Assembly: GCA_964558645.1 (NCBI GenBank)
Contig: CAZLEV010000002.1
Coordinates: 224,001-288,000, forward strand
Length of the DNA stretch: 64,000 bases
Reading direction: 5' to 3'
Source: an uncultured archaeon
Lineage (GTDB): Archaea; Asgardarchaeota; Thorarchaeia; Thorarchaeales; Thorarchaeaceae
Shown: positions 3,562-14,680 of the stretch, piece after piece
Position numbering within the stretch: position 1 is the first letter of the stretch
How the letters are laid out: each line of letters opens with the position of its first letter
The notes under the pieces: generated by a model
What the model saw: the letters and a program-made list of their open reading frames with translations, nothing else
Told to the model about the DNA's origin: nothing
Databases searched by the model: none
Made by a program: the position numbers and the translations under genes

Positions 3562-3719
3562 TGCACCTGCCCACTTGACCTTGTTCGTAAAAGACTTGTC
3601 AATTGCCTCAATCGATTGCGCAATACAGACCTGTCTCTATGTTGTCCACAATATCCCTATAAAGATTCAAAACGATAAGCAATACAGCGCTGCCTTCCAC
3701 AGAGAAGGAATGAAAGGTG

Positions 3720-4826
3720 ATGAGGAGAAGTCCCCGCAGGCAATTCAAAGTCTGCCTGATAGGCGACGGTTATGTGGGCAAGACGTCAATCAGGCAGGAG
3801 TATCTGGGGAAGGGGTTTAAGGCAAGCTACATCCCCACCCTCGGAGTCGATTTCGCTCAGAAGTCGTTGATGTACGATGACAAAGAAACGCAACTTGTGA
3901 TATGGGATATCGCAGGGCAGCCCCTCTTCAAGAGCCTCCGCCAGAAGTACTATCAGGGCTGCAGCGGCATAATCCTCGTTTATTCTGTTGTGGACAGGAG
4001 CTCCTTTGACAACGCCTCAAAGTGGCTTGTTGAGGCCTACGGCTTCATGGGAGAGCTCCCACCCATAATAGTAGCGGCAAACAAGATAGATCTGCGATCA
4101 AACCGGCCAGAAGACGAGATAGTCACTTATGAAGAGGGGAAAGTCTTCGCGGAGAAGTTCAGTCAGAAACTGAATGCACCGGCCATTTTCATAGAAACGT
4201 CTGCACTGACAGGGGAGAACATCGAAGAGGCGTTTCAAGAACTGACAGAAATGATGGTTGAGAGAGTCGAGAGGCGCCTCCAAGGACTCAGAGAAGAATC
4301 GGCATCGACGATGCCAGAACAGGCCGCAGATACTCAAACCAGAGCAGTTGAATCGACAGAGACCTCTGCGTCAGGAGATTCAATGGGTTCGACCACTGCA
4401 AATACCGCACCCTCTGAGGCGGATTTTGACCCCGTGACCTCACTCATGAGCGACTCACCTCATCTACAGGAAGAGCAGATTGGAGAACATATGAGCAGAC
4501 TGCTCCAGTTGCGTAGTGAACTGAAGAGTGCAGAGGAAGAAATGGCACACCTCACCTCTCAGTATGAAACTAGGCTCTTGGAACTCAGAAACACCGTCCA
4601 TGTCAAGAAGCTGATGTATGAGCACCTCCAGACACAGATCAAGGAAACACGACAGGAGTGGTCTGATGCCTATGAGGAGTATGTGAAAATAGAGGAACAC
4701 AAGAACAGAGAGATAACACGACGGGGTAAGCAGATCGAGAGCATCCGAAAAGAAATAGAGCGTATAGGAAGGACAATAAGAACGAGGGTCGGCGACCTCG
4801 ATCTGAGAAAGGTTACTGGGTCATAG
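3720..4826 (+). CDS. Rab-like small GTPase with low-complexity linker and C-terminal coiled coil
   Basis: G1 GDGYVGKTS, G2 YIPTLGVDF, G3 WDIAGQ, KYYQG, G4 NKIDL, G5 ETSALT; heptad-rich C-terminal ~120 aa. Confidence 0.93.
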   Translation: MRRSPRRQFKVCLIGDGYVGKTSIRQEYLGKGFKASYIPTLGVDFAQKSLMYDDKETQLVIWDIAGQPLFKSLRQKYYQGCSGIILVYSVVDRSSFDNASKWLVEAYGFMGELPPIIVAANKIDLRSNRPEDEIVTYEEGKVFAEKFSQKLNAPAIFIETSALTGENIEEAFQELTEMMVERVERRLQGLREESASTMPEQAADTQTRAVESTETSASGDSMGSTTANTAPSEADFDPVTSLMSDSPHLQEEQIGEHMSRLLQLRSELKSAEEEMAHLTSQYETRLLELRNTVHVKKLMYEHLQTQIKETRQEWSDAYEEYVKIEEHKNREITRRGKQIESIRKEIERIGRTIRTRVGDLDLRKVTGS

Positions 4827-7058: not shown

Positions 7059-8858
7059 TCAATGCTGGAAATAGGGGCTATCTATATCACTCTGGTCTTC
7101 GAATCCAACATCATCCAGCATGGAACCCATGGGTTGCGCACCACATGTCCACGATAAGCTGACAGTTCCATCTTCCTTGAAATCAAGTACTACATCCGGA
7201 AGGTCACCGAAGAGATTATGGTCGGCCTCCAGTACATCCTGATAGGCACCAGTCAAGCCAATCAGAAAATAGCCAACCTCGGCAGGGTCGGCCACAGGTA
7301 TGCCGGTGATCACTCTGTTCCTCGAACTCGTTATGAATCGATTGTCCTTGCTTAGTATCGGCTCATCAGGAGTGTGCCTAACGACAAAGGGAGAGATCTC
7401 CCCGTCACTGTCACAGGTCATGTCCACGAGCCGGACCGTTGCTGCAGGGTGTTTGTTGTGTCCAGAGAGAGGAATGACAGGAAAGTGCTGCTGAACAAAG
7501 ACATGGTCGAGACAGCTGTTGAAGACACTGAAATTACCTATCGAAATATAGTCCGGCTGCATGATCCAAGCGTAGAGATTCGCAGGCACGTGAATCCCTT
7601 TTTGCACAATACGTTTTCTAAGGATTGTCTTCAACAGAGTGACGAGTGTCTCGCGTTCAAGTAACTCGTCTAAGTCTCCCGTGGGCGTATCTGGTTCAAT
7701 GATCTCCCGCCAGATTGCATAGATAGCATCTTCACTCTGTGCTGCCTCAATCTTCTCTCTCCAACGAGCCAAGAGGGGATCTGACAAGTCAATCTCGGGC
7801 AGAAGACGGCGGGTCTCAATCACTTCCACAAGTATCATCGAACTCTGTGCAGTGATGGCTCTCCCCGCCTCTGTCATGATGTCCGGGTGATCTTCTGCAC
7901 CCTTCCGCTCACAGACATCCTGGATGGCTCTTAGAACCGTATTGAAATATACTGAAATGGGGTCCTTCGTAAAGAGACTCTCGTAATCAACCGGGATACC
8001 ACCACCCAAGTCTATGGTATCGAGCGCCCTGTAGCCCCTCTCCTTGAGAGAGAAGAATACTTCGGCCATATATTTTCCAAAATCGTGCATGTTTGTCTCA
8101 AGGTTGGTCAGCTGCGAGCCAATGTGAGCGTGGATTGTCCGAACATCGTCAAGGAGGCTGTTCTCTCTGAGGATATCTGTCACTTCGAATAAATCCTGAA
8201 CTGAGAGTCCGAACTTTGAATACCTACCGCCTGAGTGATGCCAGTGGCCGCTGGACTTGACGTATGGTTTGACTCTAAGGGCCAAATCGATATCACCGGG
8301 TTCGAAGAAATCAACCGCCAGATGCACTTCAGGAATGCTTTCGAGACAGACAAGTACATTGTGTCCAGCTTCAGATGCCTTCTTGGAGATGGTGAAGTAG
8401 TCTCTGTCTTTAACCCCGTTGCAGAAAATCAACCGATTCTTGTCTTCGCCGATAGCCCTCACGACCAAGAGCATTTCAGTCTTCGAGCCTGCTTCCAAGC
8501 CGTATCTGATGTCTGAGTTCAAGATGGTCCTGATGCAATCTACCTGCTGGTTAACCTTCACTGGGTAGAGAGGTTTGTACTCACCCTTGTACCCCTCTCT
8601 CAATCTATAGGACTCGAAGGCGTTGTTTAGTCTTCGAATCTTCATTGTTATGAATTGAGGAACACGGAGGGTGAAGGTAGAGGTATACCCCACTTCGGAG
8701 GAGTACTTACGGCGGACACGTTCTATCAAGTCTTGAAAAGGGAAGAGCCGGTCATCGAACTTGAGGCAGAGATTCCCGTCGGAATTGATGTCGAGGAAAT
8801 CCAAGTCACCACGGCCAACACCATGTATGAACTTGGCGTCCTCAACAGACCACATCAT
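7059..8858 (-). CDS. speA: Biosynthetic PLP-dependent arginine decarboxylase (bacterial SpeA type)
   Basis: WSVEDA N-terminus, PLP-lysine motif YPVKVNQ, GLEAGSK, CNGVKD, SKFGL, HAHIGSQ, DLGGG, EAGRA, NFSVF, DMTCDSDG, GAYQ...HNLFG. Confidence 0.9.
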   Translation of the reverse strand: MMWSVEDAKFIHGVGRGDLDFLDINSDGNLCLKFDDRLFPFQDLIERVRRKYSSEVGYTSTFTLRVPQFITMKIRRLNNAFESYRLREGYKGEYKPLYPVKVNQQVDCIRTILNSDIRYGLEAGSKTEMLLVVRAIGEDKNRLIFCNGVKDRDYFTISKKASEAGHNVLVCLESIPEVHLAVDFFEPGDIDLALRVKPYVKSSGHWHHSGGRYSKFGLSVQDLFEVTDILRENSLLDDVRTIHAHIGSQLTNLETNMHDFGKYMAEVFFSLKERGYRALDTIDLGGGIPVDYESLFTKDPISVYFNTVLRAIQDVCERKGAEDHPDIMTEAGRAITAQSSMILVEVIETRRLLPEIDLSDPLLARWREKIEAAQSEDAIYAIWREIIEPDTPTGDLDELLERETLVTLLKTILRKRIVQKGIHVPANLYAWIMQPDYISIGNFSVFNSCLDHVFVQQHFPVIPLSGHNKHPAATVRLVDMTCDSDGEISPFVVRHTPDEPILSKDNRFITSSRNRVITGIPVADPAEVGYFLIGLTGAYQDVLEADHNLFGDLPDVVLDFKEDGTVSLSWTCGAQPMGSMLDDVGFEDQSDIDSPYFQH

Positions 8859-10297
8859 TCCTCCTCCTCTGCTTCATCGATAAGAACATCCATCAGGCTG
8901 TCAAATGCCCGGGATAGGTCACCAATCTCGTCACCCCGAGATGTCTGTTTGACGTTGAGTTTCAGCTCTAACGGTTCAATAGAACTCTTGGTGAACTTCA
9001 CCACTGCAGCCTTTCGTATTCGTTCCATTATCTCCTGCAATGGTCCTGTCACCGTGCCTGCAACCCAATACCCAAGAATGCCTGAGATGATTATACCAAC
9101 CATCCCCACATACATGATCTGCTCAATTGTGAGTCTTAGAGTGGATGTGATCCGATTCTGAAGCAATGGAATTGCCTCCAAGACCTCATCGAGGGGGACT
9201 ATCAGCACACAGATGTATCCGCTCTTGCCGACAGGGGTATACACAAGGAGTCGTTCTTCTACTCCTCGCCGGTATTCAAGAGAGCCGTCTTCTCCTGAAG
9301 TGATTGCATCAATCTGGAGGAGTGTTAGCGAATCTGATTCGACTGCACTGAATTCGGGAAGCCCCTCTTCATATGCAGAATCGGGTACTTCAGGATGTGC
9401 AACTACCAGACCATCGCTTTGAATCAGAGTTGCGTAGCCATTCTCATACACATCTATGTCCAAGACGCGATTCTTGATGTCTTGGATTGTAATGTCTCCA
9501 GCGATGACACCTAGCATCTGATTGTTCTCATGGAACACAGCCTTACCGATCGATATCAGAAGCACTTCGTCTATCGGATCATAATATGGTTCTACAAAGA
9601 CGATGTCCCCATCTCCTGCTGCAATCTCAAGATACCAATCATCAAGAGTGGGATACCAGGGGTCCAGCTGCCTCTCTGCATCAGTTCCTCCTAGGATACT
9701 CCCGGGGTAGTTGATGAACATATCATTGTCTGCGAATGTGAAATAGAGCCATCTGAACTCCGGAACTCGATCTCGGATAGATCTGAAGATATTGTCCATG
9801 TTGGACACAAGGCCAAGGCGTTCTGAAGAGGCGCCTGCGTAGGTTGCCCAATTCGAGCTGTCAGACCCGGGAATGTACCAGCTGCTATACTCCCAAGAAA
9901 CATTGATTCCATAGTCCGGGTCAAACTCTATGTCGGCAGGATGCGGACCTTCGGAGGGGTTTTCGAAGAAATAGTCGTAATAGGTCTCACGGGCGAAATA
10001 GGTATTCTCATCACTGAAGAGGCGTTCTATCTCTTCAGCCATGCTGATGACCATTCCTTCAGCAGTGGTCAGTTTTTGGTTTATCACATTTGATGTGGTG
10101 ACGCCTGTGGCCAGCATATCATTGATTGCCTGCCCCTTGAGAGCATCTATGCTCCGAGAAGTCGTTGTGTCACCTATCAACACTCCAAACCCCATTGAGA
10201 AAGCAGTTGTCAGAGCAACAGATGCGGTTGTGATTACCAGAAAGGCCACCAGCATTGTTCTCTTGAAGCTAGTTCCGGTTGTTCTATTCTTTGCCAT
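8855..10297 (-). CDS. Membrane sensor TM-dCache-TM-HAMP with no output domain
   Basis: Two hydrophobic segments; Cache motifs FRWLYF...FINYPG, DDWY, EPYYD, GVIAGDIT, GYATLI..DG.VVAHP; HAMP ending GDEIGDLSRAFDSLM, then stop after ~11 residues. Confidence 0.85.
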   Translation of the reverse strand: MAKNRTTGTSFKRTMLVAFLVITTASVALTTAFSMGFGVLIGDTTTSRSIDALKGQAINDMLATGVTTSNVINQKLTTAEGMVISMAEEIERLFSDENTYFARETYYDYFFENPSEGPHPADIEFDPDYGINVSWEYSSWYIPGSDSSNWATYAGASSERLGLVSNMDNIFRSIRDRVPEFRWLYFTFADNDMFINYPGSILGGTDAERQLDPWYPTLDDWYLEIAAGDGDIVFVEPYYDPIDEVLLISIGKAVFHENNQMLGVIAGDITIQDIKNRVLDIDVYENGYATLIQSDGLVVAHPEVPDSAYEEGLPEFSAVESDSLTLLQIDAITSGEDGSLEYRRGVEERLLVYTPVGKSGYICVLIVPLDEVLEAIPLLQNRITSTLRLTIEQIMYVGMVGIIISGILGYWVAGTVTGPLQEIMERIRKAAVVKFTKSSIEPLELKLNVKQTSRGDEIGDLSRAFDSLMDVLIDEAEEEE

Positions 10298-10311
10298 TTG
10301 TTTGCCTCCTC

Positions 10312-13056
10312 TTAGAAGTCCACCTGTGTTCCTCCCATCTCGAGTTGAGTTTGCATCTCGTCCTCGATGCCTTCGAATCTCTGAAGAATTCCTTCCTGTT
10401 CTTTGCCAGCCTCTGAAACCGGCAGGTACGTGGCACCTTCAATCCGCTTGCACATTCTCTCTAGGACCCGTTCGTGATCTGAACTGCACATGACTCCGAT
10501 GATTCGCAGTTTTATATCACCCTCCAAACGATTGGCGAACCGAACGATAGAGTCTTCATTATGGGTCCTTGAAGAGTTGTCCTCGCCATCAGTGAGTGCG
10601 ACAATCCACCGCTCAGCATTCTGTTCGTTGGCAATGTTCATGAGAGCCAGACCGAGTGCGTCATAGAAAGCTGTGGCCCCGCCAAGGCGAAGCGCGCGGG
10701 CAATCTCCTTCCTTGCAGTAGAATAGTCTGGGCCCAATGGTGCAAGCCTGCGGAGTTCACTGACAACAGTGTCGAATGCCAACACACCAACACTATCATC
10801 AGGTTGCGCCACAGCATCAACCATCCTCTGAGCACCTGCAACTGCCGCCTTTATTCTACCGCTCTGCCCCATGCTCCCCGATTTATCGATGACGAAGACG
10901 ATGGCACGCCGCACTCGATGTCTCACAGTGGAACCCAGAATCTTCTCCGCCTGACGACGGATTTCATGACTCGGCTCACCCATATCTTCAAGAACATCAG
11001 CCAGAAGGGAGAGCGATCTGCCCGCAAGAGGCCACTCCTCATTCTCCTGTGACATGTTGGCAGCCTCAACAAGATCAGACCGGGCATCTTCGTACATTGC
11101 CATCTCGTAGTACATCATACCTCTGTGATAGTACACATAGGATTTTGACCGTTCATAGTATGTTCCTTCAAGAAGCTCAAGCGCCCGGTCAAACATCTCT
11201 CTGGCTTCATCAAACTCCTTCAGGGCCATCTTACAGACCCCGATGGTGTCGAATTGATTGGCCATGCCTCGATTGTTTCCCAGTTTCTTGTTGATTTCCA
11301 ATGCTTCCTCCAGATGGGTCAGGGCCTTGCGGTAGTTCTCCCTCTTTGGTGACATCTCGAGGGCGCCGAAGTTGTGCATGACATCGGCAATACGCACCTG
11401 AGCATCCTTTCTTTCTAGGTCAGTCTTTGCTTCTTTCAGCATCTGACGGGCTAGTCCTTCTGCAGATTGATACCTCGCCGATGCCTCCTGCAGTTGGCCT
11501 CTTTGTCTGTGAACATTTCCAATATTGAGGTCTGCAGCCTGGATGCCTTGAATCACCTTGAAATCGACACAGAGTTGTCGAAGCCGAGTATACGTTTCTA
11601 GAGCAAGTGCCAAGTTTCCTCTGATGAACTCCTTGTTGCCAGCTCGCATCGAGTCTTGGAGATTCTGAATTGCCTCCATGGTGATCTGCAGTTCCTTATA
11701 CCGCAGGTCATGTATGGGAACCATTCCAGTCAAGTCGCCACGGCTCATATTGATCAAGACATCTGTGGCTTGTGCAAGTGGTTTGGCCATCTCTTCGCCT
11801 TTTCTGGCCGCATATTTCGACGAAACATAGATTGTGACTGCTACACAGCCAACAAGAATCCCGATGATTATCAGGCTCTGAAAGCCAATCGCTGCGGAGA
11901 GAGCGAGTGCAGCTTCAATCACATCCGTTTCAGGAGTAACCGTACACAGAACCATACCGGTCGTAGGGACTCTCTCAAATGTTAGATACCATTTTCTGCC
12001 TTGCTTCGTATATTCAATCTGGCCACTACTGTTTGTCAGAATGTCAGGGAGAATAGAGGAGAATGCATCAGCCTCTGAAGATGCGGAGCCACCAAACTCA
12101 GCATCATAGATATCTTGGCCTTCAGCCGTAAACGAGGGGTGTGCTATCAGGCCCCCGGCGGTTCCAAGAAGGAAAGCATACCCGTTCTCACTAATCTCCT
12201 GAGAGAGTACTTCGTTGTTAATTGTGTCAAGAGTCACGTCAGCGGAAACAACACCAATCAGCGTGTTGTTGTCGAATCGGATGGGCCGGCCCATGGACAA
12301 TACAAGGCCAGTGGACGGATCACCATAGGGTTCTGTGACAGCAATGGAATCATCCAAGATATCGGCAGCGTTGAGATACCATTCCTCTGAATTGGGATCA
12401 TAATCCTCTCCTTCTCCATACCAGTCCAAGAAGTATTCCAGATTGTCATAGGGGTAGTTCCTGAATAGATGTCGATTCGAGATTGAGAGGTCAAAGCCCA
12501 TATACAGCCAGATATAGTCCGAACTCATTTCATGAAGCGACTGGAATATGTTGTCCATATTGGACGATGTGTCCAAGACATAGCGCATATCATCGTCCCA
12601 TTGGAATGGGTCGTCGTCAATGTAGTAGTCTCTAGGCATGTAGTAACAACTGACATCAAACGATATGCTGTCCGATTCATACTCATCGATGGATTGCAGA
12701 TTAGGGACTGTATAGCCCGTATTGGCGAGCTCAAGACTGGGATTCCAGAAGTAAGAGTGACGCGGGCTAGCATCATACCGTTCGTTGAATAGATTCTCGG
12801 CATAGTCCTCCATCATGTAGACACCATGGAAGTACTGCTCTATCCGCTCCTCAATGAAGGTGGCAGTATCAGCTGTTACCCTCTGCAGACTTCCCAGTTC
12901 CTCCTTAGTCAAAGCCTCTGCGGCTTCAGCCGTGTTCTGTTCTGACATGAAATACACGCTAGAAACCATGTATGAAGCAATCAGAAGCACGGAGATGATA
13001 ACTGAAGCGCTAAGGCCTCTTGTAACTTTCTTTGTAATACTCCAGGTCTCAAACAT
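10312..13056 (-). CDS. Membrane receptor TM-dCache-TM-HAMP-TPR-VWA
   Basis: Cache YIWLYMG..RNYP..YDPNSEEWY..EPYGD..GVVSAD; HAMP KPL...GDLT; several TPRs (LNIGNVHRQRGQLQEA, HNFGAL, DTIGVC, YHRGMMY); VWA MIDAS IDKSGSM / GGATAFYDAL / LTDGED. ATG 13056 has a GGAG upstream. Confidence 0.88.
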   Translation of the reverse strand: MFETWSITKKVTRGLSASVIISVLLIASYMVSSVYFMSEQNTAEAAEALTKEELGSLQRVTADTATFIEERIEQYFHGVYMMEDYAENLFNERYDASPRHSYFWNPSLELANTGYTVPNLQSIDEYESDSISFDVSCYYMPRDYYIDDDPFQWDDDMRYVLDTSSNMDNIFQSLHEMSSDYIWLYMGFDLSISNRHLFRNYPYDNLEYFLDWYGEGEDYDPNSEEWYLNAADILDDSIAVTEPYGDPSTGLVLSMGRPIRFDNNTLIGVVSADVTLDTINNEVLSQEISENGYAFLLGTAGGLIAHPSFTAEGQDIYDAEFGGSASSEADAFSSILPDILTNSSGQIEYTKQGRKWYLTFERVPTTGMVLCTVTPETDVIEAALALSAAIGFQSLIIIGILVGCVAVTIYVSSKYAARKGEEMAKPLAQATDVLINMSRGDLTGMVPIHDLRYKELQITMEAIQNLQDSMRAGNKEFIRGNLALALETYTRLRQLCVDFKVIQGIQAADLNIGNVHRQRGQLQEASARYQSAEGLARQMLKEAKTDLERKDAQVRIADVMHNFGALEMSPKRENYRKALTHLEEALEINKKLGNNRGMANQFDTIGVCKMALKEFDEAREMFDRALELLEGTYYERSKSYVYYHRGMMYYEMAMYEDARSDLVEAANMSQENEEWPLAGRSLSLLADVLEDMGEPSHEIRRQAEKILGSTVRHRVRRAIVFVIDKSGSMGQSGRIKAAVAGAQRMVDAVAQPDDSVGVLAFDTVVSELRRLAPLGPDYSTARKEIARALRLGGATAFYDALGLALMNIANEQNAERWIVALTDGEDNSSRTHNEDSIVRFANRLEGDIKLRIIGVMCSSDHERVLERMCKRIEGATYLPVSEAGKEQEGILQRFEGIEDEMQTQLEMGGTQVDF

Positions 13057-13060
13057 ATGT

Positions 13061-14521
13061 CTAACTCCCTTGCTCACTCAACAATTTGATAATCTCATCA
13101 ACTACTCTTTCAAGCTCTTCCTTTGACTCGAAAGCGAAGGATTTCGTGTCAATGAACTCGCCTGCAATCTGCCCTTTGCCACGCAGCAGAATAAGCGCTC
13201 TACGTATGGTCGCTGCGTCGAGCTCATGGTCTACATCAGGATCCTGTAGTGCGGCCTTCATATCAAGGAGGTCGCCGAACTCGATCTTGTTACCCGAAAC
13301 CACACTGGATAGTAATTTCCTTGCATCACGTTTTGACATCGACGGGGTGACCAAAGCGCCCCTCAAGCCAGTGAACACGAAAGTTCTACCATCGTCTTCA
13401 AAGTGACCAGATATCATCTCACGTCTAACCATCTCCTGCAGCTGACGGCGTAGGTTGTAGACAGCGGGACGGGGAAGTGATCGCCTGATGACTCTGTCAA
13501 GCTCCCTCAAAGTGATGCGGGGATTTAGTGATGTCACAGACAGTATGGTCTCACTGATGAATTCATCAATCTGCTGTGGCTGTAATGCATCCAGTATAGC
13601 CCCACAACTCGCACAGCTCGGCGTTTCTGGCGACACTGGGGCACCACAATGACCGCATCGAATAGCCCTCCGATAGACAGTTTCCTTCGTAGAAGATATC
13701 TCCTCGATGACTCGACGAGTGAGTGAAGACATCGCATTGCCTTTGACACGATATATCTCTAGGGCAGGAAGCCGTGTTCCGATAGCCAAGTAAAGGATGT
13801 CACTACGTGGGTGCCGATCTGCGTCAATGGCAAATGGGCGCTCTGAAAGATCCAATTCCTGTACCAGACCCCCACCCATATCCCAAATCCTCAGAGTACT
13901 CGACTTGTCCCCTGTGGCAAACAGTTTGTCGTTCTCCAAGTTCAGGACTGTACCTACTCGTATCTTCGAAGGAACCGTGAACTGTTTCAACAAGTAGCCA
14001 GCTGCAGATAGGATGCTGATATTGCCGCTGCGCTCCATCACAACTATCTCATATTCCGGATCATCCGTGATGTTCTCTAATCTGACAGAAACAACGGGTG
14101 ACGGAAACGATCGTGTAAACAGCTTGATGTCATCGTTCCACAAGGACACGGTATTATCGCGCATGGCAGCTGCAAACTCGTCCGCATAGTCGCCATCAAT
14201 ATCGGCCGCATCACAGGTTATGACCGGACTAGACTTTGCTATATGGTAGATAATCTGCCCTTTGTTGCCAATGACTATAACACAGTCCTTCGTCCCTGCA
14301 ACAATGTCGTCATAACCGTCAGCATCGATATCACCGATGGCTACGGTTCTAACCTTGGAGGTCCATTTTCGAGAACTTGTTTCTTTCCCGGCAGGAGAGA
14401 ATACTTTGAGTTTCTCGTCGTAGTCGATAGTGTATATCTCGACGCCCCTCTTTGTGGTTCTGACAAAGATGTCGTATATCAGGGACTCTGTATTCCTTAT
14501 TGATGTACGACTAATCTCCAT
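13061..14521 (-). CDS. FG-GAP-like beta-propeller + Zn ribbon + two PCI-like winged-helix domains
   Basis: GDIDADGYDDIVAG, ADIDGDYADEF, ENITDDPEYEIVV repeats and ATGD...LRIWD; CGHC...CASC; ITLRELD...LQEMVRREMISGHFED and TIRRALILLRGKGQIAGEFID. Start chosen at ATG 14521. Confidence 0.72.
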   Translation of the reverse strand: MEISRTSIRNTESLIYDIFVRTTKRGVEIYTIDYDEKLKVFSPAGKETSSRKWTSKVRTVAIGDIDADGYDDIVAGTKDCVIVIGNKGQIIYHIAKSSPVITCDAADIDGDYADEFAAAMRDNTVSLWNDDIKLFTRSFPSPVVSVRLENITDDPEYEIVVMERSGNISILSAAGYLLKQFTVPSKIRVGTVLNLENDKLFATGDKSSTLRIWDMGGGLVQELDLSERPFAIDADRHPRSDILYLAIGTRLPALEIYRVKGNAMSSLTRRVIEEISSTKETVYRRAIRCGHCGAPVSPETPSCASCGAILDALQPQQIDEFISETILSVTSLNPRITLRELDRVIRRSLPRPAVYNLRRQLQEMVRREMISGHFEDDGRTFVFTGLRGALVTPSMSKRDARKLLSSVVSGNKIEFGDLLDMKAALQDPDVDHELDAATIRRALILLRGKGQIAGEFIDTKSFAFESKEELERVVDEIIKLLSEQGS

Positions 14522-14680
14522 TTTGATAGATTGTACATTTTGAGCATATAAACAATGACTAAGATTTTCCAGTTTGAGAGCTGAAGATAGCTCCTGTATC
14601 AATGGATATATGATGAATCAGAGCAACGGAAGTTGAATCCGATCATTGTATGTCAGACTAGAGGACTCGTGAGGTTCAGA

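Follow-up and report, generated by a model that had tools for sequence, protein, structure and literature searches.

Receptors that couple an extracellular Cache domain to a HAMP domain are the commonest extracellular sensors of prokaryotes, and they usually end in a kinase, a methyl-accepting chemotaxis protein (MCP) signalling domain, a cyclase or a phosphatase. The closest described systems include the dCache_1AA receptors PctA, PctB, PctC, Mlp24 and Mlp37, built from a transmembrane helix (TM), a dCache_1 domain, a second TM and a HAMP domain; R126 hydrogen-bonds the ligand carboxylate, and D173 together with aromatic residues is common to amino acid and amine sensors (PMC10589655). In TlpQ and McpU, which sense polyamines, agmatine or histamine, the primary amine sits in a pocket of strongly negative charge, held by the corresponding Tyr/Asp/Asp, and McpU binds agmatine with a dissociation constant of 0.48 µM (PMC6234866). 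The locus described here is a four-gene cluster at positions 7059-14521 of a 64,000-nucleotide stretch of DNA, called the window throughout (G000:C2:224001-288000), in which two adjacent Cache receptors are encoded with a β-propeller protein and an arginine decarboxylase of the SpeA type. The window lies on contig C2 of a 3.63-Mb genome of 37 contigs that is 93% complete. Its relatives bear the name Candidatus Thorarchaeota, and the host is an Asgard archaeon, which an earlier note on this DNA had thought probable. The best explanation of the cluster, a tentative one to which we give somewhat less than an even chance, is that a transmembrane sensing module found across the Asgard archaea, and lacking an enzymatic output, is present here in its Thorarchaeota form, placed in an operon with the cell's sole arginine decarboxylase and serving homeostatic amine sensing. 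Its features are as follows.

14546 to 14552, minus strand: TATA-like TTTATAT, spotted by eye, its centre about 28 nt 5' of the ATG at 14521
13061 to 14521, minus strand (alternative start at 14602): P0004, the soluble propeller protein, 486 amino acids (aa) from the ATG at 14521; β-propeller (BBS2/FG-GAP-like, DxDxDG loops), linker helix, CxxC..CxxC Zn ribbon, two winged helices and a C-terminal helix
10312 to 13056, minus strand (alternative start at 13077): P0003, the main receptor, 914 aa from the ATG at 13056; TM1, dCache_1, TM2, HAMP-like linker, TPR array and cytoplasmic VWA domain
12376 to 12402, minus strand: pocket motif YDPNSEEWY of P0003, aligned with PctA Y121-Y129, in which Glu231 replaces the carboxylate-binding Arg126
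10873 to 10887, minus strand: DxSxS motif DKSGS of the metal-ion-dependent adhesion site (MIDAS) in the cytoplasmic VWA domain, invariant columns of alignment A1
8855 to 10297, minus strand: P0002, the co-receptor, 480 aa; TM1, dCache_1 ectodomain, TM2 and HAMP
7059 to 8858, minus strand: P0001, SpeA-type arginine decarboxylase of pyridoxal phosphate (PLP) fold type III, 599 aa

By calling of open reading frames (ORFs), the whole interval is filled by these four genes. The TAG stop of the propeller gene is followed by 4 bp and the receptor ATG at 13056, which has GGAG 9 nt 5' of it, and the TAA stop of the receptor gene by 14 bp and the co-receptor ATG at 10297, with GGAGG 7 nt 5'. The co-receptor and SpeA genes overlap by ATGA, with GAGGAGGAGGA just before the overlap. 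All three junctions were read directly, and the tight packing, together with the Shine-Dalgarno-like motifs before the two Cache genes, is as reported in the earlier note. TTTATAT is a candidate archaeal promoter that would suit a leaderless operon transcript. The upstream TTG start of P0004 at 14602 is less likely than the ATG at 14521, as orthologues begin at the same Met (alignment A2).

The two receptors share with the dCache_1AA sensors the order TM, dCache_1, TM and a HAMP or HAMP-like segment. In P0003 the Pfam matches are dCache_1 (68.8 bits), TPR_12 (57.4), VWA_2 (49.8) and VWA (42.3), and in P0002 dCache_1 (64.9), so that both belong to dCache_1 (PF02743, gathering cut-off 45 bits). 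The HAMP signal of P0003 is weak (14.7 bits against a cut-off of 25 for Pfam HAMP PF00672); orthologues exceed the cut-off, with 32.2 bits in L071 and 25.5 bits in L074, and Pro433 and Glu462 of the region are invariant in alignment A1, which joins P0003 to 12 orthologues with identity down to 26%. P0002 has a HAMP match of 24.4 bits (cut-off 25) and stops directly past HAMP helix AS2 with an acidic tail. The earlier note had called it output-less, which holds as far as an output domain is concerned; the label needs correcting in that P0002 probably carries a HAMP domain. P0002 and P0003 are paralogues with 26% identity, and the co-receptor adjoins the receptor at every locus with enough sequence.

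PctC (1.9e-11) and PctA (2.6e-10) are the best PDB sequence matches of the main receptor. Aligning its distal module with PctA, PctB and PctC by phmmer equates PctA Y121, R126, W128, Y129, Y144, D146 and D173 with P0003 Y226, E231, W233, Y234, Y251, D253 and D280. The pocket of P0002 reads WYPTLDDWY ... EPYYD ... AGD, with Asp at the R126 position. Both domains therefore depart from the dCache_1AA motif at the Arg position and keep its W, Y, Y, D and D. Both pockets would suit a ligand that carries an amine and lacks an α-carboxylate, a reading supported by the alignment, and the suggestion of the earlier note that these Cache domains sense amines is compatible with the loss of Arg and the retention of Tyr/Asp/Asp. 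The proposed mode of binding is that of McpU and TlpQ, an amine held by Tyr/Asp/Asp in an acidic dCache pocket; unlike the present receptors those proteins are MCPs feeding CheA, and no close sequence relationship to them was seen. The dCache_1AM sensors PctD, PacA and McpX derive from an amino acid sensor by loss of the conserved Arg with the distal Asp kept (PMC10589655), as here. Archaeal reports of the class are limited to Halobacteriota, and its members have a characteristic upstream insertion with an R103/D133 pair. P0003 and P0002 were compared with the AM motif at shared positions, and their nearest PDB relatives are of the AA type. The Cache domains of the cluster are thus probably Arg-less domains of the AA type that would have taken an independent route to amine sensing.

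In its sensor half the system is a dCache_1-HAMP receptor of the usual kind; what departs from the dCache_1AA proteins, besides the replacement of Arg126 by Glu or Asp, is the obligate adjacent pair and an ending in TPR-VWA, or in no output at all, in place of an MCP, kinase or cyclase. The VWA domain of P0003 combines the VWA fold with a complete DxSxS...T...D site, and the MIDAS residues D731, S733, G734, S735, T802, D830 and G831 are invariant in the 12 orthologues. The four operon proteins and their ten neighbours contain no kinase, receiver or MCP signalling domain, and the locus does not belong to the two-component, chemotaxis or Ser/Thr-kinase systems. The earlier note had stated that kinase, response regulator, MCP and cyclase domains are all absent from the window. 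For the first two this is true of the whole of contig C2 (HATPase_c, Response_reg and Pkinase have 23, 5 and 1 matches genome-wide, none on C2), and for MCP and cyclase domains it holds for the four proteins and ten neighbours that the check covered.

The propeller of P0004 matches BBS2_Mid at 29.8 bits (cut-off 27) and FG-GAP_3 at 26.2 bits (cut-off 26.9), and a Zn_ribbon match is also found. The AlphaFold model (predicted local distance difference test, pLDDT, 80) consists of a propeller (1-260), a helix, a Zn ribbon (287-310), two winged helices and a C-terminal helix. Foldseek aligns the propeller with the generic propellers of WDR5, BBS1 and G-beta (E ~1e-13 to WDR5/BBS1, target-normalised TM-score ~0.6), and its atlas neighbours are Asgard clusters of the BBS2_Mid/BBS7 type; by Pfam match and fold it belongs to the BBS2/FG-GAP type. 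The C-terminal half folded alone has a pLDDT of 74. Compared with known structures by VIA-align, the tail resembles generic winged helices, with a best Z of 7.7 to Stn1; the winged helices of cullin WHB, ORC/Cdc6, ESCRT-II and PCI proteins tie with Stn1, those of PCI (CSN7, eIF3) at Z 6-6.7. The C-terminal model had no Foldseek match at E ≤ 0.001, a PDB profile search with alignment A3 gave no match (best E 0.058, a Zn ribbon), and PCI (PF01399) has no Pfam match in P0004, whose model is without the helical-repeat part. The PCI domain proposed in the earlier note accordingly lacks support, and a generic tandem winged helix describes the tail better. This tail is specific to Thorarchaeota and Arg-rich: R346 is invariant, and R343, R347 and R358 are nearly so.

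Variants of these proteins occur in other Asgard lineages, which are numbered here by family (f1 is that of the Thorarchaeota). Two f22 loci (L071:8054-12238 and L072:5747-9945) encode a module without sensors, made up of a HAMP-TPR-VWA protein (~575 aa), a TM-HAMP stub of 150 aa and a propeller protein of 610 aa that has a Zn ribbon at its C-terminus. A co-receptor encoded in a second Heimdall copy (L061:6563-8197) is a dCache-HAMP-Zn ribbon protein with a RING/FYVE-like finger, and one from Hermod (L074:293-2290) is a dCache-HAMP-Zn ribbon protein with HEAT repeats. The Zn-ribbon module appears to move between co-receptor and propeller protein, which would lend weak 'Rosetta-stone' support to an association of the two.

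Some eukaryotic proteins resemble parts of this system. The α2δ subunit and CACHD1 join Cache and MIDAS-VWA in one polypeptide, as P0003 does, and CACHD1 (8s7c) and α2δ are among the PDB matches of the ectodomain; their VWA is extracellular, in contrast to that of P0003, which is cytoplasmic and lies behind HAMP and TPR. The integrin head is formed from an α FG-GAP propeller and a β MIDAS I-like domain, the same two domain types as are encoded side by side here. In the present case they are separate cytoplasmic proteins, and the propeller fits generic seven-blade propellers no more closely than integrin; the likeness is one of analogy only. The chytrid Phlyctochytrium bullatum (JADGJI010000515.1, L155:4658-11188) encodes a 974-aa dCache-TM-TPR-VWA protein, P0023, in an intron-bearing gene. 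It is collinear with P0003 over 692 aa (E 7e-24) and has an Arg-type pocket, YNPRCRPWY; its gene is adjoined by a divergent 604-aa dCache-only gene that matches the Asgard co-receptors, and neither SpeA nor the propeller has a match nearby. For an enzyme-free combination of TPR-VWA with a propeller and a truncated twin, no described counterpart was found in a literature search. The same search found no work joining Asgard archaea with Cache and vWA, or with arginine decarboxylase, and the papers it found that mention both Asgard and dCache concern other systems.

The fourth gene encodes what is, by its motifs, a divergent SpeA-type enzyme. P0001 matches Orn_Arg_deC_N (104 bits). Its residues 26-587, nearly the full length, align with 3NZP, the SpeA of C. 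jejuni, and the alignment with that of E. coli (3NZQ) falls into two segments (21-391 and 441-584). P0001 has the PLP and catalytic motifs in common with these and with the V. vulnificus enzyme (3N2O), keeping the PLP lysine (YPVKVNQ), HAHIGSQ (HxHxGSQ), the GGG loop, TCDSDG and GAYQ, and looks catalytically intact. It differs from those enzymes in falling below the equivalog cut-offs, in being encoded with sensors, and in replacing the pyruvoyl arginine decarboxylase PdaD in these lineages. The 93%-complete host genome contains SpeA in one copy with no second SpeA, no PdaD (PF01862) and no detected spermidine synthase (PF01564). It also has one agmatinase-like gene (C12:99051-99875) and TiaS (C4:207322-207666). 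In archaea TiaS uses agmatine to form agmatidine in tRNA-Ile2, so that the presence of TiaS implies a need for agmatine.

Across Asgard families the two decarboxylases look complementary. PdaD is found in none of the genomes of f1 (0/85), f11 (0/22), f13 (0/12) and f14 (0/19), and in f21, a Loki family, in 14/14, in f22 in 118/135 and in f23 in 3/4. Four genomes without the linkage have PdaD and only weak, LysA-like SpeA matches, and the Heimdall genome G065 has SpeA and no PdaD. This pattern looks like a non-orthologous displacement of arginine decarboxylase. In the Heimdall-type family f13 a second fold-type-III decarboxylase, LysA-like and below cut-off at 196 bits, is encoded just downstream of the linked SpeA (L052:14715-16154, and also L073, L131, L135, L136 and L147).

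Homologues of P0003 are present in 133 of 400 genomes of the phylum and in 70 of the 85 of its own family. A scan of one genome per species gave 242 relatives; the best 79 of these all have Asgard-type or unclassified-archaeon titles, save one metagenome-assembled genome labelled Bathyarchaeia, and the names among them are Thor, Heimdall, Hod, Hermod, Sigyn and Loki, including the cultured Lokiarchaeum ossiferum. The four gene types were located by tblastn in about 120 loci, of which 94 are unique receptor loci and 53 have at least 2.5 kb on either side of the Cache pair. Among these 53 assessable loci SpeA is a neighbour in 43 and the propeller in 47; 37 have both and none has neither. The Thorarchaeota gene order is propeller, receptor, co-receptor, SpeA. 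ORFs were counted there for SpeA at 42 of 43 assessable loci and for the propeller at 49 of 50, and as both misses are tblastn matches with a broken ORF, the tblastn counts are 43/43 and 50/50. One Thorarchaeota locus, L094 (CP070658.1, bin8), has an in-frame TAA in the receptor, a co-receptor match limited to residues 1-126 and no SpeA in the next 7 kb; the cluster looks decayed or misassembled, and this is the sole such Thorarchaeota locus.

Elsewhere the arrangement changes. In the Heimdall-type f11 and in Hod, SpeA is divergent upstream and a propeller/Zn-finger gene lies convergent downstream; f8 has SpeA divergent upstream with no propeller match; f10 and f13 have receptor, co-receptor and SpeA; in the Hermod family f14 SpeA lies 6 kb upstream; and Loki f21, f22 and Sigyn f23 have receptor, co-receptor and propeller with no SpeA. 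SpeA is thus linked in gene orders other than that of Thorarchaeota in f8, f10, f11, f13 and f14. The linkage of speA to the Cache genes, which the earlier note had proposed to check by a survey of gene neighbourhoods and to abandon if it failed in related genomes, held in Thor, Heimdall, Hod, Hermod and f10 genomes. The remaining neighbours in the window recur in a same-genus genome only, and the block is for this reason bounded at the four genes.

The pocket motif, tabulated across 40 and then 89 full-length receptors, varies with the decarboxylase. Arg is absent in 58 of 58 SpeA-linked receptors, which have E, Q, W, F, Y or S at that position, and SpeA is nearby in 0 of 8 Arg-type receptors, only 3 of these 8 being assessable. 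On a midpoint-rooted FastTree phylogeny of the receptors the Arg/SpeA contrast occurs twice, once between the Loki clade and the rest and once within f10/f11b, a clade in which Arg occurs in L061 and L058, and Q or S together with SpeA in L056, L057 and L060.

From the anatomy of the cluster, its conservation, the complementarity of the enzymes and the pocket pattern, we infer the ligand, the pairing of the receptors and a relay by complex assembly as follows. The two sensors would form a hetero-oligomer through their HAMP helices and bind an extracellular cationic amine, for example agmatine or putrescine. The HAMP signal may then change the binding of the TPR-VWA arm, with the propeller protein as the likeliest partner to dock at the MIDAS site. 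In Thorarchaeota the Arg-rich Zn-ribbon/winged-helix tail of that protein could bind nucleic acid or some further partner. SpeA expression or activity would in this way be adjusted, and synthesis kept in step with the supply from outside.

Several observations weigh against this reading. The substrate of P0001 is a prediction, and the protein scores below both NCBIfam equivalog cut-offs (NF003763, 350.6 against 369; TIGR01273, 323.1 against 624.1). The match of Glu231 to the acidic residues of TlpQ and McpU is only putative, and the co-receptor pockets of f22 and f23 are acidic in the absence of SpeA. Genomes within a family are kin, so the association of pocket and SpeA amounts to about two independent contrasts on the midpoint-rooted tree. 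The SpeA and receptor trees both recover the families as monophyletic and place f10 differently. Some f10 and f8 genomes have a linked SpeA and in addition a weaker PdaD-like match, and the rule that one enzyme excludes the other is not absolute. Finally, a search with the propeller profile at 1e-5 found none in the f10 and f8 genomes, linked or unlinked; in f13 genomes there are many paralogous FG-GAP-like matches that resist assignment. As f10 and f8 have no propeller match and the winged-helix tail is Thor-specific, the propeller/winged-helix output cannot be a universal relay.

The linkage of SpeA with Arg-less Cache pockets could also be explained by an autoinducer or quorum circuit, in which agmatine is secreted as a signal from which the receptor pair gauges cell density or the presence of syntrophic partners. 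The earlier note had left the circuit as autoinducer-like or homeostatic. In a genome that has TiaS, lacks PdaD and has SpeA as its one arginine decarboxylase, agmatine is to be seen as a housekeeping metabolite and not as a dedicated signal; the family-wide replacement of PdaD by SpeA fits metabolic displacement better than a dedicated signal synthase, and speaks for the control of a pathway that is essential. The genes flanking the cluster vary, and there is no conserved exporter among them. The autoinducer half of that proposal is weakened to the point of being very unlikely, and homeostasis becomes the better reading of the two. The cut-offs missed by P0001 might alternatively mean that the decarboxylase acts on another basic amino acid and that the receptors sense the corresponding product. 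Its near full-length collinearity with C. jejuni SpeA and its conserved motifs argue against this, as does the genome's need for an arginine decarboxylase to supply TiaS, for which no other candidate was found, and there is only a slim chance that it is correct.

Homeostatic sensing also has to be weighed against explanations that keep the module and separate it from, or tie it more directly to, the enzyme. The sensor module and SpeA may be functionally independent, the module sensing an environmental cue and acting on the cytoskeleton, membrane traffic or small GTPases while SpeA is merely co-promoted. The triad occurs without SpeA in Loki, f22 and f23 genomes, also with amino-acid-type or degenerate pockets, and the propeller resembles those of the BBS1/BBS2 type that dock GTPases. 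The Cache pair nevertheless retains SpeA in about five families, which differ in all other neighbours and show at least three gene orders, and the change of the pocket coincides with SpeA linkage, which leaves independence unlikely. More direct would be an antizyme-like, post-translational control in which the TPR-VWA arm, its MIDAS gripping an acidic tail, binds SpeA and switches the enzyme, the propeller being accessory. This would account for f10 and f13, where receptor, co-receptor and SpeA are clustered and a propeller is missing from the vicinity; also in its favour are the invariant MIDAS site and the acidic tails in which SpeA and the co-receptor both end. A VWA-SpeA contact is itself a proposal, and the arm is kept in lineages without SpeA, so that SpeA cannot be its general ligand. 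As an account of the whole system such control is decidedly unlikely; direct contact is a live alternative, especially where the propeller is unlinked (f10, f13).

Of the neighbouring genes, a Ras-family small GTPase of 369 aa is encoded 2 kb from the operon (window 3717-4826, plus strand; Ras 144.9 bits, with a C-terminal MbeD/MobD-like coiled segment), and its position is kept solely in the same-genus genome. Ras GTPase, RibD_C, HhH-GPD, MBL and MFS genes were considered as further conserved neighbours and rejected, their conservation being confined to the genus. An anti-phage defence system was likewise rejected, PADLOC giving only a generic TPR match.

What would be new in this locus is a Cache-HAMP receptor that acts through assembly, without an enzymatic output, and is coupled to polyamine or agmatine metabolism. 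The receptor ends in a TPR-VWA docking arm and is accompanied by a truncated twin and a eukaryote-like propeller, in a system spread over the Asgard archaea and one chytrid. It offers a testable case of possible signalling by complex assembly in the closest prokaryotic relatives of eukaryotes. Through the linkage to SpeA, agmatine or putrescine can be named as a hypothetical ligand and there is a defined output to measure, and the related triad in the cultured Lokiarchaeum ossiferum makes experiments conceivable. The swap of PdaD for SpeA across the Thor, Heimdall and Hermod lineages is useful for the understanding of Asgard metabolism. In its widest form, which is improbable as it stands, the finding would mean that Asgard archaea signal here purely by regulated protein assembly through an integrin-like contact of MIDAS-VWA and propeller, that the system is related by descent to receptors of eukaryotes (the chytrid dCache-TPR-VWA pair, perhaps α2δ/CACHD1), and that it was recruited in Thor- and Heimdall-type lineages as a polyamine/agmatine homeostat.

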